From contig CH464491.1 in the NCBI GenBank assembly GCA_000002445.1, positions 2,688,001 to 2,752,000 of the forward strand: a stretch of DNA of 64,000 nucleotides, given 5' to 3'. The position numbers were made by a program, and so were the translations under genes. This stretch comes from Trypanosoma brucei (taxonomy: Eukaryota). Positions 3,317-60,100 of the stretch are shown in pieces. The notes under the pieces are model-generated. The model was not told where the DNA came from, made no database searches, and saw nothing but the letters and a program-made list of their open reading frames with translations. Within the stretch, counting starts at the first letter, position 1, and each line of letters starts with the position of its first letter.

Positions 3317-6300
3317 ATGACCTCTCGCATTGAGAAGAGTGTTCGTGGTAAAGGAGCGGTGAAACTACGAGGGTTCCTGAAATCGAAGGAACAACTTTTT
3401 GCTACCAAACTGAGTAGCCCCCGCGTCGAATGCAGGGCAGGAAATGAGGAAAAGGGCGCTATGGGAGAAAAAGATGTGACTGGTGGGAGGCACGTGCACG
3501 GTGTTGTTGCGCCTCATCGCACTCTCGATACTGGCACCGCGTCCGTCCCTCTCCCAGCTAACCTCCCACCCGATGGTAAGGGAAAGAAGCTGCTGAATCC
3601 TCTGCGGAAGAAGTTACTGAGAGACCTTTCTGCTGACGAGGGCGGCTCGTTGCAGCATCTGCCGGCGAAACCCACTGGGCACAAGGAACTGGGTGCAATA
3701 AGAATCGCTACTGCAGACGTGTTCCCCGCTGGTGAGGCGCCTCACCGTCCTGCTGCACTATCGTCAGCTGTGTTATCCTCGCCCATGCAGGGTTTGAAGA
3801 CAGCTGCAGGTAAGTTGAACCCACCGGTAGGTATAGGACGCAAGAAGCGCCAACAGAAGTTGCAAAAGGCACAACTCGCGTCTACCGTTCGAGTAGAACG
3901 ACTCAGGAGTGACGGCACTTCCAGATGCGGGAAGAAAGGTAGCGTCAAGGTTCCCTCCGAGTGCTCCAGTCTTAATTCTAGCATCACATGTACAGTTAAC
4001 ACAAATGATTGCGCGGAACTGGACAGAGAGAGTGGTGTAGACGACATCGACGATCCAAACGATGACAACGCACAAGAACTATCTGCTAATGAGTTAGGTG
4101 ACGAGCTAGCGCCTTATGATGAGGTGGATGAAGAGGAGGCAGTGCAGCGGTACATGGGAAGCCACAGAGCCTCAACTTCGCCGAAAAAGACGGAGGACAG
4201 CGTCTCACTCAATCGGTGCCTCAGCGATCCATCGCTGTCAAACACATTGTGTGACGCACGTGCTGCACCGCTGGATCGTCCCAACAGCGCAATCGGAAGT
4301 TGTGCTGCTCCAGAAGATTTGCAACGGTCACTCGATGAAAAAATGGAAGAAAGTTCCCGGCGGCCATCCACTGCCGGTCAGCTGGGGGAGGGCACCAGTA
4401 GTTTCGGCACGCAAAAGGCTTCAGAACTCTTCAATGACAGCCTTTGCCGCTCCCTGAGTTTGTATGACGCGTTTTTCCTCAATGAAGACGGGACTACTTG
4501 GCTTGTTGATGACCGTGTTCTCGCTAGATGCCTAAATTATATCGGGCTTATGGATTACGAGCACGAGCTCCACGGACTGCGGCGCACTACAGGGAACAAC
4601 TTGAGTGCTTCTGCATGGGCGCAGCTTTCGTCCCCTGTGAAACGCAATGTGATGCCATCGTCTGTGGCATCTGCGGCGCCGCCGCTTCGGTGCACTACTT
4701 CTCCCAACTTTGTGAACAGTAGCAATTCTTTTTCGGTGGGGCAGAGTAAGCTGTGCAAAGCTCCAGAGTCGCGAGGAGGCCGTCCTGATTTTCCTACCCT
4801 CTTCCTTGACATCGACGAGACAATGAGATGGCTCTCTGGACAGGAATATGTCATAGGAACCATCCTAGCATGTTGTACGCGCGACAGCGATGCCTCTGAA
4901 GACGGGAATGTTCAGCCGTACTTGTCCCCTGCAGTTCATCCCATAAAGCAAATTGCCACAATTGTACGGGAATGTTACCCCCATTGGGGTAGCACAGTCC
5001 GTTTTGCGGACGCATGGGAGAAGCAGGTTGTCCTTGTTCTTGGTACATCCTCACCATCGCATCAGTTACTGTTCCCGTTTCCGGAGGAGGGCATATTCTT
5101 CTCGTCCGACATGGAGGGTGGAAATATTGCTCGCGTGGAACGTATGCCCGAGTCAACACTACTGCATCTACAGCAATATCCACAGCAGCCGAATGGGATC
5201 GGCTTTTCATTGTGGATGGAACCTGAACCCGGATGCGGGCAAAGGTTGTGGTTTCGTTTTGCTTTCGCCGGCGTCAAACCTCATACGTCGGTGACTTTGC
5301 GATTAGTTAACATTCAACCCACCACAAAACTATATGGTCGGAATGGCATGCGACCTGTGTGGAGGGCAGGGAATTGCCTCCGGCAGTGGGTGCCAGTAGC
5401 GCAGTGCTCATATCGCACAACAAATGACGAGGCTGATGGGGAACTGACGTTTGTCATAACACCCCGTACAAATGATGTCATTCATGTGGCGTTCTGCGTT
5501 CCCTACACATATGCTGATTTACTCTGCCACATTACCCACTGGCATAACTTGGTTAAAAATAGTACGTGCGATATTTGGTTTGAAGAGCGTGTGTTGTGTT
5601 ACACGCAGGATGGTCGCAAACTGCACATGCTTATCATAACGAGTTCCTCTACGAAAACTAATCAGCGGCACCGGAGCAAGCGGAAAGTGGAAGGCAGCAA
5701 CAGCGCCAATAATGGAGCTTGCGGCCCTACAGCCTGCAATGCCAACTCCAATGGCGGTGGCGGTAACCCGTCTCGTAAGCCCATTGTTGGACCATACTCT
5801 CAGTTCGAGAAGGGTAAGAAGGTCGTGCTGGTGAGTGGCCGCGTGCATCCCGGGGAAACAACAGCATCCCATGGTGTTCATGGCGCAATTTCCTTCCTTC
5901 TTTCCCGCGACCCACTAGCGGCAAAGCTACGGGACAATTTTATCTTTTATATTGTACCTATGTTAAACCCCGACGGTGTCTCCAGGGGTCACACTCGGCT
6001 TGACCAGAACGGATTTAACCTTAATCGCTGTTATAACAGGCCGATTCCTCAGACACAACCCACTGTGAGCGCCCTCCGCAAGGTGTTCGACCATCTGCGC
6101 CAAGTGTTTGACGACCGCTTCTTCATGTATTTGGACTTTCATTCGCACGTTTCGCAGTCTAGCTGTTTCGCCTTCGGTAATTGCCTCCCGGCGACGGTGC
6201 AGCACTGGAATATGCTCTTTCCAAAGATCATCAGTTTACACGCGAAGGAGCTCTTTGGGTACTCGATCTGCCGATTCGGACGCGGCCACATGTTGAGTAA

Positions 6301-6895
6301 GGAGGGAAGTTCGCGCGTGCTTTTTGGCGCCGGCCTCATCCACTCCTACACCATTGAACTCACGTATTTCACAAACAACCGGCTGTACATTGACGGTCTG
6401 TTGGCTGGCGGCACGTCCAACATTATGGATGGAGAATCGTGGGAGGACCGATACACCCATACACAGATCGTGCCGCAGCGCAGCCCCGTCGCCCACAACG
6501 CCAGCACTGTTACACCCCTTAATGAACAGGGTACGGCAGTTGGAGCCGTCAAAAGTAGCAAGTGCGTCCGTAGCAACTCACAACAGAAGAGGCTAAAGAA
6601 GCGTGATGTCACCAAGATCCCCAGTGACTGTGGTAATGGCAAACCAGAACTGTTGAGGCAGATTAGGGTACCGTGCATTCTGGCGCAAAGCGCTGAAGTC
6701 GGTCGTTCGTGCATGCTTTCTTTGCTCGACTACTGCTCTGTCGATAACTACATATCACCACAGTTTGCAGCGTATGGAGGGATGGAGCGAATGCTGCGGG
6801 ATGTCAAACGCCACATGGGTTCACCGACCGCCGCGAAGCCGGGGTCATGCAGACTGCAGTTCATTTACAAGCAACAGCAACAACTGCAGCAATAA
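3317..6895 (+). CDS. cytosolic carboxypeptidase, M14 family (CCP/Nna1-like, putative tubulin deglutamylase) with long N-terminal extension
   Basis: FSSDMEGGNIARVE N-domain motif (CCP FESGNL-like); zinc-binding HPGET, NPDGV, and later FHSH ligand typical of M14 CCPs; 1192 aa. Confidence 0.75.
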   Translation: MTSRIEKSVRGKGAVKLRGFLKSKEQLFATKLSSPRVECRAGNEEKGAMGEKDVTGGRHVHGVVAPHRTLDTGTASVPLPANLPPDGKGKKLLNPLRKKLLRDLSADEGGSLQHLPAKPTGHKELGAIRIATADVFPAGEAPHRPAALSSAVLSSPMQGLKTAAGKLNPPVGIGRKKRQQKLQKAQLASTVRVERLRSDGTSRCGKKGSVKVPSECSSLNSSITCTVNTNDCAELDRESGVDDIDDPNDDNAQELSANELGDELAPYDEVDEEEAVQRYMGSHRASTSPKKTEDSVSLNRCLSDPSLSNTLCDARAAPLDRPNSAIGSCAAPEDLQRSLDEKMEESSRRPSTAGQLGEGTSSFGTQKASELFNDSLCRSLSLYDAFFLNEDGTTWLVDDRVLARCLNYIGLMDYEHELHGLRRTTGNNLSASAWAQLSSPVKRNVMPSSVASAAPPLRCTTSPNFVNSSNSFSVGQSKLCKAPESRGGRPDFPTLFLDIDETMRWLSGQEYVIGTILACCTRDSDASEDGNVQPYLSPAVHPIKQIATIVRECYPHWGSTVRFADAWEKQVVLVLGTSSPSHQLLFPFPEEGIFFSSDMEGGNIARVERMPESTLLHLQQYPQQPNGIGFSLWMEPEPGCGQRLWFRFAFAGVKPHTSVTLRLVNIQPTTKLYGRNGMRPVWRAGNCLRQWVPVAQCSYRTTNDEADGELTFVITPRTNDVIHVAFCVPYTYADLLCHITHWHNLVKNSTCDIWFEERVLCYTQDGRKLHMLIITSSSTKTNQRHRSKRKVEGSNSANNGACGPTACNANSNGGGGNPSRKPIVGPYSQFEKGKKVVLVSGRVHPGETTASHGVHGAISFLLSRDPLAAKLRDNFIFYIVPMLNPDGVSRGHTRLDQNGFNLNRCYNRPIPQTQPTVSALRKVFDHLRQVFDDRFFMYLDFHSHVSQSSCFAFGNCLPATVQHWNMLFPKIISLHAKELFGYSICRFGRGHMLSKEGSSRVLFGAGLIHSYTIELTYFTNNRLYIDGLLAGGTSNIMDGESWEDRYTHTQIVPQRSPVAHNASTVTPLNEQGTAVGAVKSSKCVRSNSQQKRLKKRDVTKIPSDCGNGKPELLRQIRVPCILAQSAEVGRSCMLSLLDYCSVDNYISPQFAAYGGMERMLRDVKRHMGSPTAAKPGSCRLQFIYKQQQQLQQ

Positions 6896-12226: not shown

Positions 12227-14167
12227 ATGTTCTTCTGGGGTTCGTACAACTTTTTTGAACCCCGACAGGCGGACCCCCCTAATCGGCCGCCGCTGCGTTA
12301 CCCCGTATATGTGCCCCCGTCGCTTTCCATGATGGCTGACGCTGGGATTGCAGAGCCCGAGAAAATTTTAAAAACTGAACAGGACGACATCCAAAGCACA
12401 TTGCAACATGTGGACAACCATCGTATCGTCGTGAAGCTGATTGGTTGTGGCCAAAAACATTTGGTGGGGCTTATGGGCCTGGCCCCCAAATCAAGCATGG
12501 GTTCTGCTTTGCCGCGTAGGGAAGGTGCCGTCACATCTGATATCGGTTCGAATGTGACATATGCACTGTATGGCATGGGAAGCAATCACAGTGGCCAGTT
12601 GGGCCATCGCCTGCCAACGTACAGCACCACATTGGTAAAACTCCAATTTGAGGAGTTGTTGCCACCAGGAGTCACCGTTTCTAGCATTGCCTGTGGTGAT
12701 AAATACACAGTTGTTTCTACTTCCGATGGGCTTGCGTTCGCCGCCGGAGATAACAGCTTTAGTCAACTTGGTACAGTGGGAAAAGGGCTTGGTTTTGCTC
12801 CTGTTCGTGGTATACATAACATTAAGCGAGTCTTCGCCGGTGGTAACGCAACCTTCGCCCTAGATGGTAACGGCCAACTCTTCTCATGGGGTGAAGCACA
12901 GTACGGACACCTGTGCCATGGAGACAACGGCCAGCGGTTGGATGTAAAAACACTGAAAACTGTGAACACCAATGTTTCCGTGCCTACAAGGATCGAATGG
13001 TTCGTCCGCCGTCACGTTACTATTGTGGATGTGTCAGTATCCCGAAGTCACGTGGTGTGCCGTAGCGGCGATGAAGTGTACACGTGTGGTGATGGTACAT
13101 ATGGAAAGCTGTGCTCAGGGAGTTTCGAATCGTCGTACTTACCTGTGCGTGTCAAATTTCCAGAGCGTACCCACCCTGAGCGTGTCTGTGCCATTGCTGC
13201 TGGGGATGATCATACGCTAATTCTTCGCGAATCAAGTGCCGTTGGTGCCGTTGTTTATTACTTCGGCAAAGCAAAAAACGGTGATGGGCAGTTGATCCCA
13301 GACATCATATCTTTGCCATCAAACGTTCAAAATATATTCGCTGGGCGAGGAACGTTTTCTGCGGCAACAACGAGTGATGGGCTTTTGTACGTATGGGGAA
13401 AGCAAGTGTACACTGGCTTGTCAAACGGTACTTCAGGTAAGGCTTCTCGCAGTTACCCGTGTAGCGTTGTGGCTTTAGAATCACATAACATTACCAGCGT
13501 CGCCGCAGGCGCCACGTTTGTAGTGGCGACCGGTGGTGAAAGGCGTGCCTGTGAAGGCATCGCCAACGAAGGGGAAAGATGGGATATAGTGATTCCACAC
13601 GACGATAGAACTGAGTCAGGGTATGGCGATTCCTTCAGCTCGAGATACGAAAGTGCGGTTCAGGCGTTTCTCACACAGTACCTTGGTCCATCAGTCGCTG
13701 GAGCATATATATCTGGCATTCCAGAAGCTCCGTTGGCGACCAATCCGAACGCCAACAGGTTTAAACCCATCGGTGCACACTCCCTAACCGTAGGACAAAA
13801 GGTGCGGTTGTGGATGACAGACGTGTACGCATTAGCCTCCATAACGAAAGTGTTTGGACGCAAGGAGCAATCAAATCACGTTGATATCAGCGGCAAGACC
13901 AACGAAGAAGAAAGAGATCATCAACAACACCTTCAAATAAAGAATGAAGAGGAAGAGAAGGAAAATTTAGGGCTCTCAGAGGTCAGTGGCTCGGCCGATG
14001 CACCGGGTTATCGCTTCTGTATTGAGTGGCAAAGGGATGATTGGAGAGACGAGGAAGTTACGTTGTACTCTGACGATGAAACTTTAGAGGAAACAAACCC
14101 CAACAGATGGCAGCCACTGTGGTTCCTCTACGACGAAACAGCTGGAAACTATGTCGTCGGAAAATGA
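12227..14167 (+). CDS. RCC1 (regulator of chromosome condensation) repeat protein
   Basis: Repeated beta-propeller blade motifs YGMGSNHSGQLGH, AAGDNSFSQLG, SWGEAQYGHLCHGD, TCGDGTYGKLCSG, VWGKQVYTGLSNG; alternative ATG at 12329. Confidence 0.7.
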   Translation: MFFWGSYNFFEPRQADPPNRPPLRYPVYVPPSLSMMADAGIAEPEKILKTEQDDIQSTLQHVDNHRIVVKLIGCGQKHLVGLMGLAPKSSMGSALPRREGAVTSDIGSNVTYALYGMGSNHSGQLGHRLPTYSTTLVKLQFEELLPPGVTVSSIACGDKYTVVSTSDGLAFAAGDNSFSQLGTVGKGLGFAPVRGIHNIKRVFAGGNATFALDGNGQLFSWGEAQYGHLCHGDNGQRLDVKTLKTVNTNVSVPTRIEWFVRRHVTIVDVSVSRSHVVCRSGDEVYTCGDGTYGKLCSGSFESSYLPVRVKFPERTHPERVCAIAAGDDHTLILRESSAVGAVVYYFGKAKNGDGQLIPDIISLPSNVQNIFAGRGTFSAATTSDGLLYVWGKQVYTGLSNGTSGKASRSYPCSVVALESHNITSVAAGATFVVATGGERRACEGIANEGERWDIVIPHDDRTESGYGDSFSSRYESAVQAFLTQYLGPSVAGAYISGIPEAPLATNPNANRFKPIGAHSLTVGQKVRLWMTDVYALASITKVFGRKEQSNHVDISGKTNEEERDHQQHLQIKNEEEEKENLGLSEVSGSADAPGYRFCIEWQRDDWRDEEVTLYSDDETLEETNPNRWQPLWFLYDETAGNYVVGK

Positions 14168-21842: not shown

Positions 21843-22936
21843 GAACCACGCCTTTCAAGAGGCGGGAAATGTACTTTAAAAATTGCGTCGAGGGTGCATT
21901 TATTGGTTTACGGGCGCGCATAAGCGTGCTGCCGTCATTTGCACTAGAGGCGTTTCGTGGGTATGTACGTATGCAGTGTATGTCGAATACTTCCTTTTGC
22001 CACCTTATCTTCAGTGATGGCAATTTTCTACTTCGATACTATCTATTTGTTTATTTGTTTATCTGTTTTTTTTTTTTGAACTTACCTTTCCTTACTACAT
22101 GTGTCTTAAAACTCCACTTTCTTGTTTTGTGGTGTGTATGCGTGAGGGAAGAGGAGGAGGAAACTGAGAAGGAGGGATGGTGGGGGTACCTCTTTGGGCA
22201 GGCTTCTCAGCTCCCTGCTGGTGCCGGATGCAATTATTAAGTCAGAGGGTTCAGCTCTGCCTGGTTATGTGTTTGTGGGTGGATGTTGTGTCTAAAAGTA
22301 CTCATATACTCAGATGTGCACACAAATGAGGACGCTCACAATGACAAAACCGTTTAAGCGGGTTTGTTTTTATATACGAACGGGGAAAGGATATTTCCCG
22401 ATAGGTTAGATATTGTTTCCAAGAATAGCTGACTAAAGGACTAAAGTTTTCGTTGGAAAAAAAAAAAGACGTACCTGTGGTGCCTAGACAAAAGGCGAAC
22501 CATCTCTGCAGTTTCTACTTTCTTCTTCTTCCCACGAACAGCTTGCCTTCATGCCTTGCAGGCGATCACCTGTGTATCCCTTTTATGAATGCACGTGGAT
22601 GTGTATATGTGTGCAAAATCACCGTGGACAATCGGACTGTTGCCTGATTACAGTGGGTTACTGTGCTTCTCCTTAATTATTGTTCGTGCTACTTCCTCGC
22701 GCCTTCTTCACACCTAACCCGTGTGCGCGCCTTCTTTTTTTTTTTTTAGCATGACAAGGTGTCAAATTCAGGGGAGTATTTTGTAAATTTCCTTTTGAAG
22801 AGGAAAAAGTGAGGGGTAAACAACTTCTAAATTCGTAGAAGGCAAACATAGAAGTAACACAAAAGAGTGAAGGGTCGAAATATAGTAAGTGGAGCTTAAC
22901 TAATTAGAAACACCACAGTTAGGATCAGGGACAGGG

Positions 22937-25900
22937 ATGCCCGCATACACTGGCCTCAACGGCCGTCCGATACCTCCGGGAGCGAAGAGGAGGCGGCACA
23001 TCACATCTGCCTTGTTCAAAACACCACTCTTGTTGGTACCAGCAATATTTATGATGATCCTCTTGTATTATTCCATGCGGTCCGGGCGTGGACATCGCAG
23101 AGGTCTACCCGTCCCTTTTTATGATTCTCAAGAGACTACCACTTCGCTAGATGATTGGAAAAAGGACCGTTCCTCTTCAGGTATTCCTGGACTGCCACCA
23201 ATGTCAGATGAGGGAAGGTCCGTTATCATTGTCCCCTGTACCGCGTCTGGATCTATAAATAGTAAACTCGACGGTCAACAGCAAGTGACCACTGAAGTTC
23301 AGTTCTACCGCACGCGGTGCCAACCGGTCGTAGTTGGGAAAAATGATGAACGCACGGTGAAGGAAAAAGGTGGATGTAGCGATGATGTGCGCCCCATTGT
23401 GAGCATAATTCCACAGGGTTCAGAAAAGTTGTATTTCCCCAAGGAGGTTCTTCTCGAGGAGATGGAGGAGGAAGAGCAGGGACCTCAAGACACCGTTGGG
23501 AGGTTCCCACAACGTATGGAGAAGGTGTTGTCGGAAGACGGGACGAATGGTTTCTGGTTGAGTACCTCTTCCTCAGGGCCACCGATTATGCGCTGTGCCT
23601 CTCGTGCTCTTGTTGAGCCATTTTTTAGCGCTCCACTAAATCCTCAGCCAAACTGGATATGGGGCTCAAGTGGTTTTGTTGTTAGTGTCCTTCTGTATAC
23701 CATTGCCCGCGACGTAGGCAAGGGCGTGGTAGAGGGCTCGTTCACATTTCGTTCGCGAGAGAAAATTCATTTCTACGGTTTACCCCTTCGAAAGAAGCCG
23801 AGCGCAGGTTGGATCGAGGCAGACGACGACGAACTAGACGACGAAGCGGTTACAGGAGGAACTCTTCCCAGTGGAACTGTGCCACTAGTCTACGCTTTTG
23901 GGGAGCGAAGTGTCGTCGGTATTCTGTGGCTGAATGGCTCCCCTTCGCATGCTTACACTACCGACACCGCAGATAGTAAGTCTAGTGGGATGCGAGAGCA
24001 AACCGTCCACTTCGCCAGTGCCACAGGTGCCACCCGTGTCTTCCTCCTCCCCGGGCCCACGCTGGAGGATGTGCTTCTGCAGTACTATACGCTAACTGGT
24101 TTCCCCGTATTTCCACCTCTATTCGCTCTGGGTTACCACCATCATTCTGTGAGATACAGACATGCGGATGATATATTACATGTGAATCATATGAGTCTGA
24201 GCTTACGTTTACCTATCGACACAGTGGGAATGAATTTGGGTGCTGTTGCCGCTGACGATATCTTTGCGTGGCCGCGAAGGCGTATTGCAGACTCGTTGGA
24301 GGTTCAGACGCGGTTGTGGCGGGACGGTGGGCACATTATTGTGCTGGCGGTAACACCAACTGTAGTACCCAGCTCTGGTTCAGCGGCATACATAGAGGGA
24401 AAAGAAAAGGGGTACTTTATTTTCTCGCCGCTAAAGGAGGGTGCCGCATTTGTTCACCTAGTTTCGGGTATAGCGAAGGTGTGGATCGACTTCTTGAACC
24501 CTCGCGCAAGGCAATGGTACTCTGAGATGATGGAATTTACACGTTTTGTTGGCTCCACAAATCTCACCCACTTCTCTCTAGTGGATAATGAGCCGATGCT
24601 ACCCAGAGTTCTTGGTGGAACCGATGGCGTAACTCTACCGTCATCAGCGCTACATTACCGGGGTGTGCGTCACAGGCAAGTCCGAAACGTCTACGGTATG
24701 TTACACTCTATGGCCGCATACGATGGGCAACTAAGTCGTACAAATAATGAATATCGGCCCTTCGTTGTCACGCAGTCGTACTTCGCGGGTTCGCAACGCT
24801 ACGCTGCGGTGCGGTTGCGTTACCGTCACAGGAGGGATAATGATCTCACCCTTTCATGGGCGCGGCTAAGGGAAACGGTGGAATTGTGCATCTTACATAG
24901 CATCTCAGGCCTTCCTTTTGTTGGGCCTGATATTAATGTCCCCGTGCCCAACTCCTTCTGGGGAAAGAAAAATTTTGACGAACTACAGGTGCGGTGGTAT
25001 CAGCTTAGTGCGTTCCTTCCATTGTTCAGGAGCGACATGGATGTGCGGCCGCGGCACGCTACGATACTTGAGTTCCCTAAACGTACCATCTTTCGTATTC
25101 GCGAGGCTGTTCTATTCCGGTACACTCTTTTGCCCTACTACTATACGCTGTTCTGGAGGTCACATCTATACGGGGAACCCATCCTTCGCCCAGTATTTCT
25201 TCCGTATGAGAAACGGGGCCCACCCCCGGAGAAAGGAGTGGCAATGTCGAAGGAATCTTTCTTTGTGGGCCCAGACCTTTTTGTGGCTCCGGTGCTGTCC
25301 GCTGTGGGGGAGGAAACCGCGTGGCGGAAGGAACCGCACCATAGGATACGTCTTCCACCCAATGACCTCTACTACGACTACTGGACTGGTGCTCTTCAGT
25401 ACCAAGGAGGATTGGTGAAGGAACCCGCATGCATACGCTTCGATAAAAACCCACCATTTGCCGAAGCGAAGCATGTGGCACCGTTGTTTCTGCGAGTAGG
25501 TTCAATTCTCCCAACCTTCACTCAGACACGAACAATGCGTAGTTCCCATGATCCGGCAAACTACACGCTTACTATTGCACTCCCGCAGCTGACGTCGGAA
25601 CTGTTATGGGCAAGTGAGCCCGTGAACTCCAGCGACGGTAGGTTGCTTGCTGAAGGCGAGTTGTTCGTGGATGGTGGCGACAACTACGTAGACTACAACA
25701 ATCATTCCACAATACGCAGTGACTTCTGTGCCCTTCGGTTGGAGTGCCGGTTATTTCCTCACTCGTACCGTATGGAAGTGCGATTGAAAGCGACGGTTAA
25801 CTCGTCGTGCGGTAAAGCTGTAGAGGCGCTGAAGGCTAATTTGGTGGAGCTGGATGACCCTAATGTATATGTTATTGATCGGCTGCGGTTATTGTTTGCG

Positions 25901-26104
25901 TCACCAAGCGAGAGTAGGTTTTTGGTGAGGGGTTTGCCCGCGGCCAGCGAAAACGGTCGACAGGAGCAGATGCAATGGAAGGTGTCCTACGGGGAGATTG
26001 ATGATAACGTGGTGGAAGTGCATAATTTCTTTGTGCAGCTGTCGGATTCTCTTTCTAACGAGAGTACAACTCATGTGATCGCTGCATTCGATTTGAGGTT
26101 ATGA
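22937..26104 (+). CDS. glycoside hydrolase family 31 (alpha-glucosidase-like) type II membrane protein
   Basis: N-terminal signal anchor LLLVPAIFMMILLYY; GFPVFPPLFALGYHHHSVRY (GH31 'P-x-W-A-L-G' region); VWIDFLNP in place of WxDMNE nucleophile motif; GLPFVGPDI...ELQVRWYQLSAFLPLFRSDMD matches GH31 signature 2 (G-x-D-x-C-G-F ... R-W-x-Q-x-G-A-F-x-P-F-x-R-x-H). Confidence 0.65.
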   Translation: MPAYTGLNGRPIPPGAKRRRHITSALFKTPLLLVPAIFMMILLYYSMRSGRGHRRGLPVPFYDSQETTTSLDDWKKDRSSSGIPGLPPMSDEGRSVIIVPCTASGSINSKLDGQQQVTTEVQFYRTRCQPVVVGKNDERTVKEKGGCSDDVRPIVSIIPQGSEKLYFPKEVLLEEMEEEEQGPQDTVGRFPQRMEKVLSEDGTNGFWLSTSSSGPPIMRCASRALVEPFFSAPLNPQPNWIWGSSGFVVSVLLYTIARDVGKGVVEGSFTFRSREKIHFYGLPLRKKPSAGWIEADDDELDDEAVTGGTLPSGTVPLVYAFGERSVVGILWLNGSPSHAYTTDTADSKSSGMREQTVHFASATGATRVFLLPGPTLEDVLLQYYTLTGFPVFPPLFALGYHHHSVRYRHADDILHVNHMSLSLRLPIDTVGMNLGAVAADDIFAWPRRRIADSLEVQTRLWRDGGHIIVLAVTPTVVPSSGSAAYIEGKEKGYFIFSPLKEGAAFVHLVSGIAKVWIDFLNPRARQWYSEMMEFTRFVGSTNLTHFSLVDNEPMLPRVLGGTDGVTLPSSALHYRGVRHRQVRNVYGMLHSMAAYDGQLSRTNNEYRPFVVTQSYFAGSQRYAAVRLRYRHRRDNDLTLSWARLRETVELCILHSISGLPFVGPDINVPVPNSFWGKKNFDELQVRWYQLSAFLPLFRSDMDVRPRHATILEFPKRTIFRIREAVLFRYTLLPYYYTLFWRSHLYGEPILRPVFLPYEKRGPPPEKGVAMSKESFFVGPDLFVAPVLSAVGEETAWRKEPHHRIRLPPNDLYYDYWTGALQYQGGLVKEPACIRFDKNPPFAEAKHVAPLFLRVGSILPTFTQTRTMRSSHDPANYTLTIALPQLTSELLWASEPVNSSDGRLLAEGELFVDGGDNYVDYNNHSTIRSDFCALRLECRLFPHSYRMEVRLKATVNSSCGKAVEALKANLVELDDPNVYVIDRLRLLFASPSESRFLVRGLPAASENGRQEQMQWKVSYGEIDDNVVEVHNFFVQLSDSLSNESTTHVIAAFDLRL

Positions 26105-28036: not shown

Positions 28037-29191
28037 ATGACTGAGCTATTAAGTGCAGGGGAAGTGCAACATCCATGTGGCTGGGCGTTTGCATTTCCCT
28101 TCGTGAAGCGGGTGCCCCCTGCAAAACTGGTTCGTTTGCTCGGAACAGCGACACTGTTGGATCGCATTCGTGAAAACGACCCAACGCTTCGGTCCGTTCG
28201 ATTAGACTATGAACTGCTACCACGAGAGGAAATAATGCAGGCATTGCTGGGAAACAACACAATCTCCAGCGTTGTAATTGCGCGTGTCATACCCAGGAAT
28301 TCGACAGGAACTGATTTTGCTCGCTTTCTTGAGAGTTTGTATCACCTCCCGCTGCGCAGCGTGCAAGTACAAGATGGAGAGAAGCTCCCGAGTTCATATT
28401 TGAATCACTTGCTTTACCTCGTGGAATACTGTTCTGGTGTGGGAAAGGCCTGCAAATGGACTGACGGTAAATGTTATGCTGGAGCCGACTTAAACACTGG
28501 GAATACGACCACTGAGATAAATGATGCCGAAGAGTTCAATGGGAATAACAGCCGAGAAGATGTTGACTCGGAAGTACTGGATTACAAGAGGGGCGCCGTG
28601 CTGGAATTCGTCGACTTCTCGGGGTGTCGGCTAACGGTGCGGCAGGCGCAGTGGCTTGGGGATATTTTGTTTCATCGTCGCTGCACGCTGAGGCATGTGA
28701 ATGCGTGCGAGTGTCGCCTGGGAAATGGGGGCGTGCGGGCGCTCCTTCGACGCGTAAACACGAGCCCACGATTGAAAGCCGCGAGCATTGCGGAGGGGTC
28801 AGTAGTGCCACTAGACATGATAGAGTTGCGTTGGAATGGCGTTACAGAGGATGAAAGCATACGAAATTTCGTCGATGTGGTGGAGAGGAGTCCTGACTGC
28901 TGGACTTGCATGACAGTTTATGGGAATTACATTTCTCCCCACATGTACACAAGGTGCGAGGCTCAGGTGGTCAAGGCCAAACGTCTCATGGAAGAGGAGC
29001 GCTTAAAAAGAAGGGAAATTCCCACAAATGTGGAGGTGGCCCAGCCGGACGGTCGGTTGTCTTCAGAAAAGGGAACATCCTGTTCTCCTCGACGGTATTT
29101 TGTAGATCTTCTCACATCAGTGGCGGGCGAAGTGGACTTCGTTTGCCCATCCCTACGTGCTGTTTCTTCGCTTTTGCACGAAGAACCCTGA
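28037..29191 (+). CDS. hypothetical protein (possible leucine-rich/RI-like repeats)
   Basis: 384-codon ATG ORF on coding strand; weak LRR-like periodicity (FVDFSGCRLTVRQAQWLGDILF... ALLRRVNTSPRLKAASIAEG); no firm domain. Confidence 0.4.
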   Translation: MTELLSAGEVQHPCGWAFAFPFVKRVPPAKLVRLLGTATLLDRIRENDPTLRSVRLDYELLPREEIMQALLGNNTISSVVIARVIPRNSTGTDFARFLESLYHLPLRSVQVQDGEKLPSSYLNHLLYLVEYCSGVGKACKWTDGKCYAGADLNTGNTTTEINDAEEFNGNNSREDVDSEVLDYKRGAVLEFVDFSGCRLTVRQAQWLGDILFHRRCTLRHVNACECRLGNGGVRALLRRVNTSPRLKAASIAEGSVVPLDMIELRWNGVTEDESIRNFVDVVERSPDCWTCMTVYGNYISPHMYTRCEAQVVKAKRLMEEERLKRREIPTNVEVAQPDGRLSSEKGTSCSPRRYFVDLLTSVAGEVDFVCPSLRAVSSLLHEEP

Positions 29192-32856: not shown

Positions 32857-33396
32857 ATGCTTCGGTTCACTCATAGGGCTCTAACAGCTACTCCCGAACG
32901 CTTCTCCGTGCTAGGTACGACGCATCCCAAACCCAAACGCACTGGCTTTGGTCGTAACAACAAAATGCGCTCGAAACCTAGTGACAATGTAGCGTGGTAT
33001 GACAAAGGCCCGGTTGAGTGGCTCCCTCGCCCTGTTAGACTTACTTATGACCATCTTGATCAACTCCAGCAGTGGATGATGCGTGCTACGCTTGACGGGC
33101 GAACGGAGGAGTTTAATCGCATCCGGGACCTTCACCGCGAGTGGTCGCAGCACCCGCTCATGCCAGTTCTGGGCGATGTGGAGCCAAAGTTTCCCCTCAA
33201 CTTATTCAAGCAAAATCACAGAGCGAAGAAGCGTTTCTTGGTGCGGTGGCATAAAGCTAATACACCAGCGAATTGGCTGTGGATGCCACGCGGCCCGACG
33301 GTTGTCACCCCTCTGCACCGCACCAACCCAACGCAGTACCCGGAAAATTGGAAGCAAATGGTGCAGAGAAAGTCTGGAACAGGCACCCCTTCGTGA
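32857..33396 (+). CDS. hypothetical basic protein (possibly organellar/ribosome-associated)
   Basis: ORF-track start 32851 is GTG; ATG at 32857; 179 aa, basic, W-rich; no domain recognised. Confidence 0.4.
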   Translation: MLRFTHRALTATPERFSVLGTTHPKPKRTGFGRNNKMRSKPSDNVAWYDKGPVEWLPRPVRLTYDHLDQLQQWMMRATLDGRTEEFNRIRDLHREWSQHPLMPVLGDVEPKFPLNLFKQNHRAKKRFLVRWHKANTPANWLWMPRGPTVVTPLHRTNPTQYPENWKQMVQRKSGTGTPS

Positions 33397-39437: not shown

Positions 39438-39869
39438 GTGATGTACCAATGCTATGCATGGTATTTACAGTCACTTAGCTTTGGGGTGCCGGTGGCTCGT
39501 GTAATCAGCACCTACTTGTAGCACTAATTAGTAATAACTTGCGCCCCCCCCCCTTGTACACCTGGATAAGCTTTTACAAGGGTTTTCAGCCTTAAAATTT
39601 GATCTCCTACTCCATTCTTTCGCTTTCGGTGCATGGGCTTCACTGTCTCTTACTTTCCTTGGAATGTGCGAATCAATGCACTTGAATATTTTCCTTTTAT
39701 CTATCTCTCTGCGTCTCTTCTTTCCATGATTCAATTACGCCGCTTTATGCGTGGTTTGCCAGTGTTGTTGACAACCGGACTTGAAGTATCACGGGGTGGC
39801 AACTGGTGAATATCGTTGGATTGCCGAAGCACTCGTTACTGTCACGACGCTTGCGCCGAAAAGGAGCCT

Positions 39870-41051
39870 ATGCACGCGACAGTCACTGCCACACAACATA
39901 TCCTTCAGTCGGTTACCACTCACAGATACGAGCTTGTTGCAGTGTTAATCAGTGGTATCGTTGCCTACTTTGCTACCGTGCGTTTTGTACAGGGGGCCCG
40001 CATAAAGCTAATACAAAGAAGGCTCTGCGGAATAGATATTAATAAAACAACGCCGGAGCAACGAAAGAAGATTGCATCGAAACCGTATGACGAGCTAGAC
40101 GAAGGCGAGAAGCGACTCGTCGTGCCGGAGTCATTTGGCATTCTTGCAGGTGCTGTGTACCTCTCTGCCGTTTTGATAACCACTTCTGTGGCCTTTGGTG
40201 GGGTCTCCCGCCAACTGGATGGATCAGTGACTTCCATTGCCGTTATGCTCCTTCTTGGATTTGTAGATGATGTGCTCGACCTGCGTTGGAGGTACAAAAT
40301 ACTTCTCTCGGCGATAGGCACCATCCCACTTGTCATGACGTTCAAGGGAAGCCTCGAGGTCATCGTTCCCCGCCTCCTCGCGCCTTACCTTGGTTCACCC
40401 ACGCTGTACCTCGGTGTCTTCTACCTTGTGGGTCTGTCGTTGTTGTGCATCTTCTGCACGAACAGCATAAATATTCTCGCTGGTGTTAACGGTGTGGAAG
40501 TAGGGCAAAGTATTGTGATTGCTGTGGCATCTATAGTGCACTGCATTATGCAGATGCGTCTAGAAAGTGATCCGAGCTACGGTGGACCTGCCACCTCAGG
40601 GCAACTCCTAGCCATTGCGCTGCTCGTACCGTTTGTTGGTGTGAGCGCTGCCCTCTGGCGTTTCAACTCGTACCCTGCTTCCATATTTGTGGGTGACAGT
40701 TATACATATTTCGCAGGCACTGTCCTTTCGGTCGCTGGCGTAACAGGTGTCTACAGTAAGACACTCATGCTCTTTTTCGTGCCACAGCTTGTTAACTTTG
40801 CAATTTCGCTTCCGCAGCTACTGCGAATCGTGCCATGCCCCCGCCACCGCGTTCCTCGGTGGGACATGAAGAGGGATGTCATGCAGAACAGTGGTAATTA
40901 CACGCTGTTGAACGCCATCTTGCTTCTACGTGGTGATATGCATGAGCGGGATTTGACGCGTGCGGCGTTGAAACTACAGATTGTCTCTTGCATAGTTGCG
41001 ATGTTCGCAAGATACTTCCTGGCTTCCCTCCTGTACGACCACGTCTACTGA
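39870..41051 (+). CDS. ALG7: UDP-GlcNAc:dolichyl-phosphate GlcNAc-1-phosphotransferase (ALG7/DPAGT1)
   Basis: ORF-track start 39816 is TTG; ATG 39870; signature NSINILAGVNGVEVGQS (GPT family N-x-x-N-x-x-A-G-x-N-G-L-E-x-G-Q), VDDVLDLRWRYK (D-D-x-x-D), multiple TM helices. Confidence 0.85.
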   Translation: MHATVTATQHILQSVTTHRYELVAVLISGIVAYFATVRFVQGARIKLIQRRLCGIDINKTTPEQRKKIASKPYDELDEGEKRLVVPESFGILAGAVYLSAVLITTSVAFGGVSRQLDGSVTSIAVMLLLGFVDDVLDLRWRYKILLSAIGTIPLVMTFKGSLEVIVPRLLAPYLGSPTLYLGVFYLVGLSLLCIFCTNSINILAGVNGVEVGQSIVIAVASIVHCIMQMRLESDPSYGGPATSGQLLAIALLVPFVGVSAALWRFNSYPASIFVGDSYTYFAGTVLSVAGVTGVYSKTLMLFFVPQLVNFAISLPQLLRIVPCPRHRVPRWDMKRDVMQNSGNYTLLNAILLLRGDMHERDLTRAALKLQIVSCIVAMFARYFLASLLYDHVY

Positions 41052-42061
41052 TTAATAAAAAAAAGAGGTGATGTGGTCACATGGCGTATGTAACGACTTC
41101 AATTTGGGTGCAACTGCAGTTACCGTGTCTGTTACGCTGTGTGAGCGGGGTCATAAGGATAGAAGCTAAACTCTGCTCTCATTTATGCCACACGCTATAT
41201 ACTATTCAGGAGGATAGTGTGTGGTAAGTGCGGAAGGAAGGCGCTTCTACTTGTTGTGTTGCATCACTGAGGGAAGGAAAAGGTTGGTCGAAGGGATGCA
41301 GAAGAACTATCCTCTATGCCAAAGCAAAGTACTCTCTTTGTGTGGTTATGGTGCGCGTAGCCACTAACGACTTTCAGATCAGTTTGAGTGGGCTCATTGC
41401 TTTGGGGTTCCCAACTTATGATTAAGTACTATGGTGGGCGATTGCTAAAAAAGGTTCGCAATGGGTGCCTGCACTCGTGCAAGAACAAGTTAGCGTGCTG
41501 CCAACGCTTAGATTTGCCTAATAGCATATTGTATTATTACAGGGTTATAATACCGATCATACTGACCGTCAACGCCGTCTCTCCCTGTGCTTATCGCAAC
41601 CATAACAAGCCGTTACTTGAAATAAGCTCATGGCACTGTTATCACTTTCTCATTAACTTGCACTGGTTCACTCAAATATATATTTCCTCCCTATTCGCAT
41701 ATATGTTAATGAATGGACCTTTAAGGCAATTTTGGCGACCCGCATCCTCGGGAAAAGGGTCGTAGCTACATACAAGCCGCGACACCGAACTGAGTTCCGC
41801 CGAGAATACATGTAAGTGCCCTCATCACCGAAATCGACAGAAGAGTAGTTCAAACGCCAAGGACATCTTCTCGCACGCGCCCACCCACGGAGGCTGGAAA
41901 CGATATTAGGGAACATTTTTGAGACCCAACGAGGTGGTAAGGTGTGTGGCAAAAGGAATATTAAGTTTTTAACTGCATACCTATTTTGTATGTCTGCCGG
42001 TAGTGCCGCGTCCCATCCGGTGGCGAGCCATGCTGGAAACAGTCGCAGCGGTAGTTTCACA

Positions 42062-42922
42062 ATGTATCACTTTGCCTCCTTCGCCGCTATGGAGGTCACA
42101 GTGACGATTGTGCCTCGTTTCACCATGCCACGCATTTCAACTGCATTTGGTGGTCGCTACGGGCCCTTTACACCCAACTTCCCCACCGATGTGCCGCTGT
42201 GGCTTGCGCTCCACATCCGACAGACGGACACTTGCACTATTCAACCGCCACCGTACGTCGCTTTGCCGCATCTTCGCCAGGTGCTGGAGAGAGAGAAGGA
42301 AAATGAAACAACATTCGAAGCACTTCCCTTCTACTTCTTCGAGGTGGTTAAGAAGTTGTGCGAAGTCAGTGCCGCTGCGGAAGATGTTCCACACGTAGCG
42401 GAGGTAGTGCGGCTCGTTGATGAAGTGCGTGCAGTGCGGAGACGGAAACTCCAACAGAGCATGTCAGTGTTTGAAGCGGAGGGATCACCCGTGTTTATAC
42501 CCGGCATTAAGCTATCAAATATCGTGAACCACGAACTTCAATACTTGCGCACGTCCTTTGCAATAGTGCTACAGCAGTCTGCAGATATGAAGCAGAGACG
42601 AGAGCAAGACATTGGTGGACCCATAGAAAGCGTCCCAACACCCATCCGAACAAGTGGGACGGCGCTGTCGTATACGCCCCTGTCAACAGCCGCTGCAGCC
42701 GAGGGGCGTTTGTTGGATTACGCAGCAACGAGGAGTAGCGATACACACGACTCTCTGTCAACCTCAGCAGCAGCGGAGCAGGCAATATTCACCCCTGAAA
42801 ACACTTTCACAACCGACGGTACCCCGTCGGTTGCTGATGCGACGGAAACGGGAACGGCGAGCATGTCAGAGGAGATTTCAGGACCACCAGTGAAGAAGCG
42901 GCGGACGCTAAGACAGACGTAA
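42062..42922 (+). CDS. GINS complex subunit Psf2 with C-terminal S/T/A-rich extension
   Basis: From ATG 42062: FASFAAMEVTVTIVPRF... GGRYGPFTPNFPTDVPLWLALHIRQTDTCTIQPPPYV... ETTFEALPFYFFEVVKKLC... EVVRLVDEVRAVRRRKLQ parallels human PSF2 FSPAELEFLAEKELVKIIPNF... [36 protein letters not shown]... ETFTPMPSPYYMELTKLL... EIRTLVKDMWDTRIAKLR. Confidence 0.7.
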   Translation: MYHFASFAAMEVTVTIVPRFTMPRISTAFGGRYGPFTPNFPTDVPLWLALHIRQTDTCTIQPPPYVALPHLRQVLEREKENETTFEALPFYFFEVVKKLCEVSAAAEDVPHVAEVVRLVDEVRAVRRRKLQQSMSVFEAEGSPVFIPGIKLSNIVNHELQYLRTSFAIVLQQSADMKQRREQDIGGPIESVPTPIRTSGTALSYTPLSTAAAAEGRLLDYAATRSSDTHDSLSTSAAAEQAIFTPENTFTTDGTPSVADATETGTASMSEEISGPPVKKRRTLRQT

Positions 42923-47097: not shown

Positions 47098-47616
47098 TTG
47101 GTCCGTCCATATCTGCTCCTTCCTTCGTGTGGGGATGGTGAGAGGTAAGGGAAAGAGGCAATGGCGGTGGTTACAAGTGATTTACTTATTTAACTATTTT
47201 ATGTGAGCGTGTTTCCCGTCTAGTAACTATGTGGTGTACGGTAGAGGGAGAGGAGACCTGGTTTATGCGAAAACAGTGTGGGAAGGGTATTGAAGTGTCA
47301 TTAAATACGGCTACTTGTTTGGCTTCTCCTCGTAGGAAGATGCGCTTGTTGGTTGTGCTTCGCATCCACACGTTTTCTGCTCCCCTCTGCATGCGTACTT
47401 TTGATCCTGTTGCACCAAATAAAAAAAAGGAAGGAAGGAAGGAAGAAACCACTAAGAAAGCCGAAAGGATCGTGCGGGTGCGGTTAGTTGCGCCAAAGGA
47501 AGGGATATTTGCGTGGCGTTTGCGGTCTCTTTTATTTGGTTTCGTCTCCGTTATCCCTTTTTTACCTTGCGGGGCTAGTTGTTGGGGCCACTATTTCGAT
47601 ATTCCCCTCTCAGTGG

Positions 47617-57124: not shown

Positions 57125-60100
57125 ATGTTCAATGTCTCACCAGCGAGTCGTGACCGCGTGCGTTCTGAGAGTCAGCGCACCCCGCGCCCCCGCAGCTCAC
57201 TCTCCATGCCACGTGAATTGTCCTACACACCCGCCATATCTTCCATTCCTTCGAGCCTGCACACACCGTTTATTCAAAAGTGCTACGTTCAGGGGGACAA
57301 TTCCACTGAGGGTCAGCAGCAGCAGCAGCAGCAACCGCCTGATCACATGACTGTCGTATTTGAAAGTGATAACATGCAACTGACAACAACAAGTTTGCTC
57401 GGGAAAGGTGGGTTTGGTCGAGTGTACGTGGCCCAGTCAAGTGGCGGGGAGTTGTGCGCCTTGAAAGTATCGTCGAAACAAATGACGGATGGTGACTGGG
57501 AGCGGTTGCGCAAAGAGGTGGCGCTTATGAGTCACTTCTCGCAGCACCCCAACGTGGTGAAGCTAATTGCTGCCGGTCGAGATAGGAATTTTGCGTATGT
57601 GGCGATGGAGTGCTGTGCGAGTCGGTCGCTGCATGACATTATTAACAAACATGGTCTCGAAGTGCCAGAAATTTTGTGGGTCGGCTATGCACTCATTGAT
57701 ACAATCGCTTTTCTGCACGCCAAGGGTTGCATACACCGGGACCTAAAGCCACAGAACCTTTTGTTTGACTTCGATGGAAACCTGAAGATAAGTGATTTTG
57801 GACTTTCAAGCAACGTTACCGAATCTGAACCACGGAAGACGGTTGCCGGGACGGCAATGTATATGGCACCCGAAATTGCTGGCGCAGTGTATAAACGCAT
57901 GACCAACGATAACAGCTCTAGTTCACTGCGCTACGGTCAGGAGGTTGACACATGGAGCATTGGTGTGGTGTTGTACGTCATGTTGACGCGCATGAACCCG
58001 TACGCGCAGGCGCTTGAAAATGAAGGTGCACACGAGATGAACAAGACGCAGAAGACACTCACCTTATTTAGTGCGGTTGCGGGGGCCGCTTGGCACTGGC
58101 CGGCGGGTTGGAGAGGCGACAAGGAACTAAGTGATGTTGTCAATCAAATACTGCATCGCAATCCAGCTCAGCGAGCCACGCTACAAGATATACTGCAGCA
58201 CCCTGTTTGGGACCGACGGCCGCTTTCGTGTCCGCTCACGCTGCTGCAAAAACTGAATTTAGTCGAGCGACGACCGTTTACCCGAACCGGAGCGGTAGGC
58301 CGCTCATGCAGCCGTGCTCCTGAAGGTATGCAGCCCCAATATGCCACCAAAACGGCAGAAGTTGTGCTCCTAGAGGGGCTAAACCAAGTGATTCAAGTCG
58401 AAGAGAGCACTCGTACTCAACTCGTCCTTGAAAGCAATGAGGTGATAAATCTCATATTCGGAACCCTGAAGCTGCATGCCTCAGAGGCTAACGGAAGGCG
58501 GTTTATTGTGATAGATGAGAAAGGTTGCCGCAAGAACATCGAAGACATGTTGCTGACCACTCGCCCGGTGCGTTGTCGCAGCCATGAGTTAGTGTCGACA
58601 GCGGTGTGTGCAAAACAGCCCAAACGTGGAACAAGGGTCGGTTCCTCATTAAGGCCGCAAAGGGAATCCAGTGTTTTGTTGGCGGGTCCATTAGCTTTCG
58701 GCCAGACTCAAGATGCTGGAGAGATTGTCCGCGCAGCGTCTGACAGGTACGCTGTGGTGTTCAGTGGACGTGAAACCTCCACACGGTGGTCTCTCCGCAA
58801 TGTCATCTCACTCCCTCGAGAACTTAACGCTGCAATTGAGGAGGTTACGTGCATTAACAAACACCAAATGAAGAAACTTATCAAAATACCCCTGGGTTAT
58901 GTCGGGTTTGATTGCAACGTATGCGACAGTGCGATTGATGATATTAGTATCGAGAAACCAGTTTTTCGATGTCATAAGTGCGACTACGACCTCTGCATGA
59001 ATTGTGCTTACGAGGGGAAAATAAAGGACGTTAACTTTGTTTGTGTTTCATGCATGAAAAAGTTTGCGTCCTCTTCAAAGCTCGAAGCACATTCAGCTAA
59101 GTGCCGTGGCCCAAGCATGAGCCCCTCGGCACGCTGCTCTTCCCGTCGAAACACGATGCTTTGGGAGCAATTGGAAAACGAGGGCGGAAGTCTGCTGGAT
59201 ATCCGGTTGCCTACCGAAACTAAACCGCGACGTAGTGCCCGTACATCTTGCCGTACCTCCGGTGGTCGAGAGTCGTCGGGTGGTCGCATTAGTATTGGTG
59301 ACAGCTATGTACCAGGACCGGAGGACTTAGGCACAATGGTAGTAGCGCACCGTGACGCCAATTTCCCTGAAATGCCAAAATTCTCCACTCAGAGCGATAG
59401 CAAGGCAAGCTCCCCTTTCGGTGAGAAGGAGGGCGCTGATAAAAATTATAGGCAGAGTTTCTCCTTTGAACTTCCCCCTCAGGTTCGGCTCTCTAAACAT
59501 CGTAGGGATAAGGGAGCGGAACCACGGAGTTCGGAAGAATTGCGCGAGATTGTAGATGAGCTTACGCCAACACCTAAAAGGGTGCGTACAGAAGCACGGC
59601 AGAATTCTTGTGAGCCATATGCTCCCCAAGTGAATGACGCAGGCTTGGTTGTCGGCATTGCTGCGCGGTCTCGTGTTGAAAGGGAGGGAAGTCTGCGTGG
59701 GGAACAGCAATCCCGTAACGTCGTAGTAATCCGTGCAGACAACGCGGCGAAACCACAAGACCTGCGAAAGCAGTCTCAGGTTCCTCGAAGCGCTTCGTCA
59801 AGTCAACCTGGTAGTAGGATGGAGTCGCAAGCTATCGATACTCTCTCGAAGCCGGCCCCTAAGAATGTGGCAGTACGAGAGTATCGGTCCGCGTCCGGCC
59901 AGCGCGATCCACTGGTGCCGAGAACGTCACTGCCTTCAGCTCAGACTGGAGAAATTTTCGGTGCACCGCCTCTCCCACGAATCGTCACCTCCGGGAGGTC
60001 TAGCGTACCACGTTCAATGTCGTACACATTGCCATCTGCTGCTGGTGTTGCGCGACGCCAGACATCCCAGCCTTTAGTGAACTTACTTGGAGGGGTCCCT

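Follow-up and report, generated by a model that had tools for sequence, protein, structure and literature searches.

A probable Golgi-resident pseudo-alpha-glucosidase of glycoside hydrolase family 31 in Trypanosoma brucei and other trypanosomatids

A stretch of 64,000 nucleotides (nt) from Trypanosoma brucei (contig CH464491.1, positions 2,688,001 to 2,752,000), referred to in the following as the window, carries at 22937..26104 of its forward strand an uninterrupted open reading frame (ORF) of 1055 codons, followed by TGA. The encoded protein belongs to glycoside hydrolase family 31 (GH31), and its active-site residues are largely replaced. It is quite probably a conserved Golgi-resident pseudo-alpha-glucosidase, which would have originated on the trypanosomatid stem from an active, membrane-anchored ancestor and would have been retained for a non-catalytic role. 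The coordinates of the gene, of its domains and motifs and of the flanking features are collected in Table 1.

The ORF product is 99% identical, with 7 residue differences, to a T. b. gambiense protein annotated as 'glycosyl hydrolase-like protein, putative' and encoded on a 4.5-Mb contig. In a published listing, a T. brucei gene bearing the product name 'glycosyl hydrolase-like protein' is Tb927.11.10370, and its downstream neighbour, Tb927.11.10380, is described as kinetoplastid-specific and endowed with an RNI (leucine-rich-repeat-like) domain. The ORF is treated here as Tb927.11.10370, which by inference, rather than by direct look-up, it almost certainly is, because the product name, the chromosome-sized contig and the presence of an RNI/leucine-rich-repeat (LRR)-like gene downstream all agree. 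The gene is annotated and localised, yet functionally uncharacterised: no functional study of it is found in the searchable literature beyond two proteomic listings. A polypyrimidine tract followed by AG is the usual appearance of a trans-splicing acceptor in kinetoplastids, and such a tract precedes the ATG; from the general structure of kinetoplastid genes, it is probably the acceptor region.

Table 1. Features of the GH31-like gene and of its flanks (positions in the window; AF2, AlphaFold2 model; GIIalpha, glucosidase II alpha with mouse numbering)
Feature	Position	Strand	Details and basis
Complete coding sequence, probable GH31-like pseudoenzyme	22937..26104	+	1055 aa + TGA; ORF listing
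Polypyrimidine tract then AG	22730..22749	+	188 nt 5' of ATG; read from sequence
Short basic cytoplasmic tail	22937..23005	+	aa 1-23, ...GAKRRRHIT; 5 K/R in the 15 residues before the anchor
Single transmembrane signal anchor, type II topology	23006..23080	+	aa 24-48; AF2 helix
Luminal stalk and poorly conserved N-terminal extension	23081..23641	+	aa 49-235; motif PIVSIIP...FPKEVLLEE
N-terminal beta-sandwich domain	23642..24055	+	aa ~236-373; AF2 strands aa 239-373
GH31 (beta/alpha)8 barrel, former catalytic domain	24104..25150	+	aa 390-738; PF01055; pLDDT mostly 80-95
V405 in place of GIIalpha W423 (-1 subsite Trp)	24149..24151	+	alignments
GMNLGA replacing WLDIEH	24227..24244	+	N433 at substrate-binding D451; alignments
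WIDFLNP, conserved GH31 segment, GIIalpha YPDFTNP, non-catalytic	24482..24502	+	alignments
N542-L-T544, predicted N-glycosylation sequon	24560..24568	+	start of barrel strand beta4; clade-only
SLVDNEP, degenerate remnant of nucleophile motif W[NI]DMNEP	24575..24595	+	aa 547-553; profile and MAFFT alignments
VTQSYF	24767..24784	+	Q613 at substrate-binding Arg R624; alignments
VRLRYRHRRDNDLTLSW, degenerate acid/base motif (canonical VW[ST]GDNxxxW)	24809..24859	+	7-aa T. brucei-specific insertion; alignments
'Signature 2' region VGPDINVPVPNSF...RWYQLSAFLPLFRSDMD	24920..25042	+	D665 retained; 5-aa insertion; D700 replaces H698
Proximal C-terminal beta-sandwich	25172..25510	+	aa 746-858; PF21365
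Distal C-terminal beta-sandwich	25511..26101	+	aa 859-1055; AF2 strands; Foldseek reaches GIIalpha C-terminus
LRR/RNI-like gene, synteny marker, probably Tb927.11.10380	28037..29191	+	matches genes downstream of P0006, P0007, P0166

Membership of GH31, proposed in an earlier note made from the sequence alone, is confirmed by a hidden Markov model (HMM) search: PF01055 matches over its whole profile length (aa 390-738) with 167.5 bits, against a cut-off of 23.5, and an E-value of 6.4e-49, and the GH31 C-terminal domain PF21365 matches at 3.3e-10; the Pfam N-domain model PF13802 finds no match in the pseudoenzyme clade described below. Among proteins of solved structure, the nearest ones by sequence (phmmer) are the mouse and Chaetomium glucosidase II alpha (GIIalpha) of the endoplasmic reticulum (ER), with E-values of about 1e-62, while lysosomal alpha-glucosidase and maltase-glucoamylase match far more weakly. 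GIIalpha is also the best fold match. The AlphaFold2 model, evaluated for secondary structure and confidence, has a predicted TM-score (pTM) of 0.78 and a predicted local distance difference test (pLDDT) of 80-95 through most of aa 313-760, and Foldseek aligns about 990 of its columns with GIIalpha (E 5e-57; TM 0.77, normalised on the target). Since the model superposes on GIIalpha, the N-terminal beta-sandwich, the (beta/alpha)8 barrel and both the proximal and the distal C-terminal beta-sandwiches are all present, as in the four-domain architecture of GH31. The N-terminal extension shows low pLDDT at aa 48-115, 129-150, 175-214 and 223-236; within it, the family alignment shows no variation at I154, P159 and L172.

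Golgi-resident type II proteins are classically built from a short basic tail, an anchor, a disordered stalk and a globular luminal domain, and the architecture of the T. brucei protein agrees with the location reported for it. Its sole strongly hydrophobic segment is found at aa 25-43 (best 19-residue Kyte-Doolittle mean 2.17). The same succession of basic tail, anchor and stalk occurs in every full-length member of the subfamily, including those with canonical active-site residues; orthologue tails contain 5-8 K/R, except for P0006 (3, in a tail of 8 residues) and for the possibly truncated P0008. Conversely, the canonical GIIalpha-like P0009 and P0010 have just a short N-terminus resembling a signal peptide. 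The type II anchor read in the earlier note is thus sustained by the hydrophobic segment, the basic tail, the predicted helix and the conservation across the family. The note had also guessed a Golgi position, which matches the published data on Tb927.11.10370, to the extent that the inferred gene identity holds. In a luminal proximity-labelling study this protein is among those with Golgi localisation in TrypTag, and it is preferentially labelled by a Golgi-proximal luminal TurboID bait; it was also detected by mass spectrometry in a cullin-A (Cul-A) immunoprecipitate, together with Golgi glycosyltransferases. The product of the neighbouring Tb927.11.10380 is reported to rise after knockdown of cullin-A, with which the GH31-like protein is reported to be pulled down.

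Residues with assigned roles in mouse GIIalpha are W423, D451, the nucleophile D564, R624, the acid/base D640 and H698 (PMC6583763). This published numbering was mapped on the T. brucei protein through pairwise alignment, with an offset of +109 that reproduces each published residue. The segment WIDFLNP (aa 516-522) had been taken for a nucleophile motif with its aspartate retained, and neither part of this claim holds. Every alignment pairs WIDFLNP with the non-catalytic YPDFTNP of GIIalpha; its aspartate, D518, is invariant in nine family sequences and nearly so in a GH31 alignment of 20 sequences. The position of the nucleophile is occupied by V549 in the profile and MAFFT alignments and by E552 in the pairwise phmmer alignment, and no register gives an aspartate. 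The nucleophile region is indeed non-canonical, as had been claimed, though it lies elsewhere, in the degenerate SLVDNEP. The corresponding column contains E, H, T, V, N, A or M in the orthologues. Next to it, D550 occupies the position after the nucleophile (Met+1; M565 in GIIalpha). Other replacements are found in the Leishmania-type members, for instance H-H, T-A and N-Q at the nucleophile and +1 positions.

The residues of the -1 subsite have also been replaced: W423, D451, W562, R624, W637 and H698 correspond to V405, N433, S547, Q613, Arg and D700, respectively, and the GxCWPG loop is likewise lost. The acid/base column is ambiguous in T. brucei, which has at this point an insertion of 7 aa (RYRHRRD) and low pLDDT (aa 632-637); the HMM alignment places D636 there. 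In the insertion-free orthologues this column contains Tyr (T. cruzi, T. c. marinkellei, T. conorhini) or His (T. rangeli). As regards signature 2, described earlier as well conserved, its second half, RWYQLSAFLPLFR, is kept; however, GADVGGF reads GPDINVPVPNSF, with an insertion of 5 aa, and the terminal His has become D700. Three insertions are specific for T. brucei, at aa 554-564 (after NEP), 627-633 and 667-671 (inside GADVGGF), corresponding to nt ~24596-24628, 24815-24835 and 24935-24949. All of them are located in loops bordering the former active site and modelled with low confidence, and the stercorarian trypanosomes lack them. One of these insertions carries D634N, which distinguishes T. 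b. brucei from T. b. gambiense.

An exhaustive HMMER search over 1.84 billion representatives retrieved 20,484 GH31 relatives, but the match to the family profile begins at its N-terminus in no more than about a dozen of them; a profile search of a word-indexed protein database gained no further family members. The best of these relatives, together with earlier matches, form a comparison set of 166 sequences, 115 of which have the full canonical signature. Conservation was evaluated on 108 canonical-signature sequences, in which 78 core columns are at least 90% conserved, 11 of them belonging to the active site. T. brucei keeps 3 of these 11, one being the ambiguous D636, versus 60% of the other 67 columns; its orthologues keep 0-2 of the 11, versus 52-76% of the other 67. 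Across the clade, the difference in retention between the two groups of columns has Fisher p values from 0.047 to 2e-4. With 0-3 of 11 active-site columns retained, versus 52-76% of the others, the loss is therefore concentrated on catalytic and substrate-binding residues. All distant GH31 sequences in the set, including the bacterial ones, keep D564, R624, W637 and D640.

Degenerate members of the family were found in T. brucei, T. cruzi, T. c. marinkellei, T. conorhini and T. rangeli, in several Leishmania (P0011, P0023) and among SRA-derived sequences; the T. brucei protein has 38-39% identity with its orthologues from other trypanosomes. Phylogenetic analysis by neighbour-joining (NJ) places them on a long branch, in a clade that is monophyletic in 100 of 100 bootstraps and that groups, in 84 of 100, with seven anchored sequences having the fully canonical signature. 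One of these, P0030, derives from Bodo saltans, the free-living sister of trypanosomatids, and the remaining ones (P0006, P0007, P0027 and P0031-P0033) from uncultured organisms. P0030 keeps all 11 active-site columns; the anchored canonical relatives as a group keep 11 of 11, along with 94-99% of the other conserved positions, because of which they are presumably active alpha-glucosidases.

The canonical anchored genes also share the chromosomal position. The LRR-like gene lies directly downstream on three bodonid-like contigs that carry canonical relatives (L001, L002 and L003), and it is syntenic with the GH31 gene in T. cruzi, T. conorhini and T. rangeli too. Five genes of the kinetoplastid metagenome contig L003 are collinear with the window, and one of the five is 75% identical. 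On L002, the upstream gene does not match the upstream gene of the window, and synteny there extends downstream only. The shared downstream gene and the five-gene collinearity of L003 indicate that the canonical anchored genes are positional orthologues of the T. brucei one. No Pfam domain is detected at E<=0.01 in the LRR-like gene of the window, its 'RNI-domain' label coming from the literature; the T. cruzi counterpart gives a faint LRR_6 match, and faint LRR matches are found in other orthologues. By far the most conserved member of the syntenic block is the gene at 32857..33357 (+), which encodes 167 aa with no Pfam family at E<=0.01 and is 75% identical to 10427..10948 of L003.

Orthology to glucosidase II alpha was considered and rejected, since in the NJ tree the pseudoenzyme clade groups with the anchored paralogues, and the topology of the protein is different. 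The kinetoplastid GIIalpha-like proteins, namely Phytomonas P0010 and P0076 with P0042, branch away from it. A separate, experimentally characterised glucosidase II exists in T. brucei (Jones et al. 2005, as cited in PMC8377397). The two Phytomonas proteins (P0010, sp. EM1, 838 aa; P0076, sp. Hart1, 836 aa) deserve a separate mention: they belong to the GIIalpha-like branch with signal peptide, yet they have lost the nucleophile Asp (VGVGMNEP; active-site signatures RDGGRWDDN and VDWGRSDDH) and keep 84-87% of the other conserved columns. Because of this missing aspartate, Phytomonas may have lost glucosidase II activity independently. A further group comprises P0110 (2547 aa), P0151 (3838 aa) and P0146 (1829 aa), large multi-domain GH31 proteins with N-terminal anchors; in the domain that matches best, the nucleophile Asp is substituted by Glu (signatures RDWERWNNH, RDWERWDNY and EGWERSNDH); these domains may be dead or altered ones within tandem GH31 arrays.

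The gene is under purifying selection. The ORF is intact in all 12 full-length members of the clade, with products of 1055-1784 aa. For T. brucei against T. cruzi, synonymous divergence (dS) has reached saturation, and for this reason selection was evaluated on three closer species pairs. The ratios of non-synonymous to synonymous substitutions (dN/dS, Nei-Gojobori) are 0.29 for T. cruzi/T. c. marinkellei, 0.29 for T. conorhini/T. rangeli and 0.27 for T. cruzi/T. rangeli; they fall to a minimum of 0.15-0.19 in the core (aa 313-760) and peak at about 0.43 over the N-terminal third (aa 1-312). In addition, some residues located in and around the old pocket are invariant in the clade: H402, W461, L548 and N542-x-T544 are found in 13 of 13 clade sequences and in no more than 6% of the others. 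At the position of H402, 130 other sequences have Gln; the N and T of the sequon occur in 4-6% of the other GH31 sequences.

As to the surroundings of the gene, 20 of the 21 ORFs of at least 250 aa in the window are on the forward strand and GC skew is positive in 30 of 32 bins of 2 kb; the window looks like a part of a single polycistronic transcription unit. At 39816..41051 (+) it encodes a protein of 411 aa with a Glycos_transf_4 domain (PF00953, 1.7e-27), similar to ALG7-type GlcNAc-1-phosphate transferases; thus, another gene for N-glycosylation is found a few genes downstream in the same polycistron. Other genes of the window code for an M14 carboxypeptidase (3317..6895), an RCC1-repeat protein (12227..14167), a GINS Psf2-like protein (41942..42922), Utp21 (47488..50544) and a protein kinase (57125..60907).

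The protein combines homology to active enzymes and loss of catalytic residues with purifying selection and, under the inferred gene identity, detection by proteomics, which are the features of a pseudoenzyme. Classical retaining catalysis of the GH31 type is very unlikely for the T. brucei protein, a judgement held with rather high confidence from sequence comparison, because the nucleophile is gone, the acid/base is gone in most members and so are the residues holding the sugar in the -1 subsite. Binding of alpha-glucosides in the old manner also appears unlikely, since three Trp and the Asp, Arg and His that hold this sugar have been lost. The simplest evolutionary course would have started in the kinetoplastid ancestor from an active, membrane-anchored alpha-glucosidase resembling GANAB/GANC, whose active version would still be kept at the same chromosomal position by free-living kinetoplastids, such as Bodo saltans and its uncultured relatives. 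A single loss of the catalytic site would have occurred on the stem leading to the parasitic trypanosomatids, followed by remodelling of the pocket loops. The outcome would be a type II protein with a basic tail, a signal-anchor helix, a disordered stalk and a large luminal portion with the four-domain GIIalpha/GANC-type fold, in which the residues for the double-displacement mechanism of GH31, and those for holding glucose in the -1 subsite, would be missing. Such a protein would act as a pseudoenzyme, being expressed, resident in the Golgi and under purifying selection. As constraint is strongest in the barrel and new invariant residues have appeared, the luminal domain most likely serves as a non-catalytic binding or scaffolding module of the Golgi glycosylation and trafficking machinery, any ligand or partner being speculative.

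A lectin that binds glucosylated or other N-glycans through the old pocket without cleaving them, as a membrane-bound receptor for cargo or quality control, represents a rather improbable explanation, although some observations are in its favour. Lectins derived from dead enzymes are known in other glycosidase families, as in the case of the GH18 chitinase-like lectins; here, the fold is preserved, constraint is strongest in the barrel and the new clade-invariant H402 and L548 are in or around the old pocket. However, the stacking W423, W562 and W637 and the hydroxyl-binding D451, R624 and H698 have all been replaced, the GxCWPG loop is lost, and the pocket loops of T. brucei contain the three extra insertions of low model confidence. 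Moreover, a Golgi location does not fit the calreticulin cycle of the ER. The earlier proposal of a catalytically modified, lectin-like paralogue is therefore supported as far as a modified paralogue is concerned, while its lectin-like character is doubtful, because the three Trp of the -1 subsite are also lost.

Some observations weigh against the Golgi pseudoenzyme reading itself. In T. brucei, D550 adjoins the nucleophile position, and D636 is at the acid/base column in the HMM alignment, inside an insertion of low confidence; an acidic residue, D or E, is kept by Trypanosoma species at Met+1 (E in T. cruzi, T. rangeli and T. conorhini). Given D550 and D636, a re-wired site is formally possible from the sequence. 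Furthermore, the link with Tb927.11.10370, and hence with the Golgi data, depends on annotation name and synteny. The former observations are also the ones in favour of a protein that is still a glycosidase, a transglycosylase or a lyase, with D550 or E as nucleophile and D636 as acid/base, or acting on a different substrate; three of the replacements in substrate binding remain polar (D to N, R to Q, H to D) and the core is under strong constraint. Nevertheless, it has little probability, since in orthologues lacking the insertion the acid/base column is Tyr or His, the Leishmania-type members have H-H, T-A, N-Q or comparable pairs at the nucleophile and +1 positions, and the three Trp of the -1 subsite are gone together with R624. 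Functionally diverse GH31 enzymes, such as xylosidases, sulfoquinovosidases, transglucosylases and lyases, are likewise known to keep both Asp. The altered specificity suggested in the earlier note, with a transglycosylase or a lyase as examples, thus finds no support, as D564, R624, W637 and D640 have been retained by every distant GH31 protein of the comparison set, unlike in the clade.

Similarly low is the likelihood of a regulator of the prozyme type, which by analogy would, through binding, control either the true glucosidase II alpha or a different enzyme of glycosylation in the Golgi. In T. brucei, dead paralogues are known to activate their active partners (AdoMetDC, DHS, PRMT1), and a possible partner is available in the separate glucosidase II; co-purification with Golgi glycosyltransferases in the Cul-A immunoprecipitate would also be in agreement, even if it is possibly mere membrane carry-over. 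However, glucosidase II is a soluble ER heterodimer with a beta subunit, while the GH31-like protein is anchored and reported in the Golgi, and its active ancestor was already a separate, anchored paralogue. Finally, a decaying pseudogene or an annotation artefact without function, for which the very high divergence between T. brucei and other trypanosomes (38-39% identity) and the long branches could be invoked, was rejected as practically negligible, given the 12 intact ORFs out of 12, the dN/dS of 0.15-0.29 in three pairs, the detection by mass spectrometry and the invariant residues that the clade has of its own.

The pseudo-alpha-glucosidase interpretation acquires interest from the biology of these organisms. 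Trypanosomes depend on a very heavy traffic of glycoproteins, such as the variant surface glycoprotein (VSG), the procyclins and the surface glycoconjugates of Leishmania and T. cruzi, and the Golgi machinery is highly divergent. As a tentative proposal, in all parasitic trypanosomatids the ancestral Golgi alpha-glucosidase may have become a receptor or scaffold of the Golgi lumen, devoid of catalysis and with new constraint on its pocket, organising or gating the Golgi glycan processing or the sorting of surface glycoproteins; H402, W461, L548, the N-x-T sequon, Q613 and D700 would be the newly constrained residues. If this were true, the secretory pathway would have in this protein a component specific to the lineage, possibly essential and without a host counterpart. 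In any case, the expectation raised by the name 'glycosyl hydrolase-like' would be corrected, as this would not be a second alpha-glucosidase acting on N-glycans. The finding would add a trypanosomatid-wide Golgi pseudo-glycosidase with a datable origin, to judge from its predicted activity in Bodo and its loss in all trypanosomatids sampled. No description of a GH31 pseudoenzyme, or of a non-catalytic GH31 lineage, was found in the searchable literature, as far as which shows this would be the first one documented.

Among known systems, the prozymes of AdoMetDC, DHS and PRMT1 are similar, as they too are paralogues without catalysis that selection maintains in these organisms; differently from the membrane-anchored GH31-like protein, they are cytosolic, and they activate an active paralogue by heterodimerising with it. 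4F2hc (SLC3A2) and rBAT (SLC3A1) are type II glycoproteins with a GH13-like ectodomain, which act as escort subunits of amino-acid transporters. The resemblance is one of concept, a glycosidase fold on a type II anchor being re-used for a non-catalytic partner role; however, they belong to GH13, reside at the plasma membrane and have known partners. In vertebrates, MYORG (KIAA1161) is an active type II membrane alpha-galactosidase of GH31, found in the ER and nuclear envelope. As in the T. brucei protein, one N-terminal type II anchor carries a GH31 domain in the lumen of the early secretory pathway, but MYORG is catalytically active and no close relative; indeed, no chain named MYORG is present among the 53 PDB sequence matches (E<=0.001) or the top 50 fold matches.

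GIIalpha (GANAB; mouse 5F0E/5IEF, Chaetomium 5DKX) shares with the T. brucei protein the four-domain architecture and the conserved non-catalytic motifs PDFxNP and RWYQ...PFFR. It is soluble, with a cleavable signal peptide, and kept in the ER via its beta subunit, whereas the T. brucei protein is type II-anchored and reported in the Golgi; W423, D451, W562, D564, R624, W637 and H698 of GIIalpha are replaced in T. brucei, and D640 in the insertion-free orthologues. Finally, the anchored GANAB/GANC-like GH31 proteins of free-living kinetoplastids have in common with it the basic tail, the anchor, the long N-terminal extension and the genomic position, but all the active-site positions are canonical there and most of them degenerate in T. 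brucei. Such a pair of an active and an inactive orthologue would provide a natural means to ask what a glycosidase fold does after catalysis has been lost.

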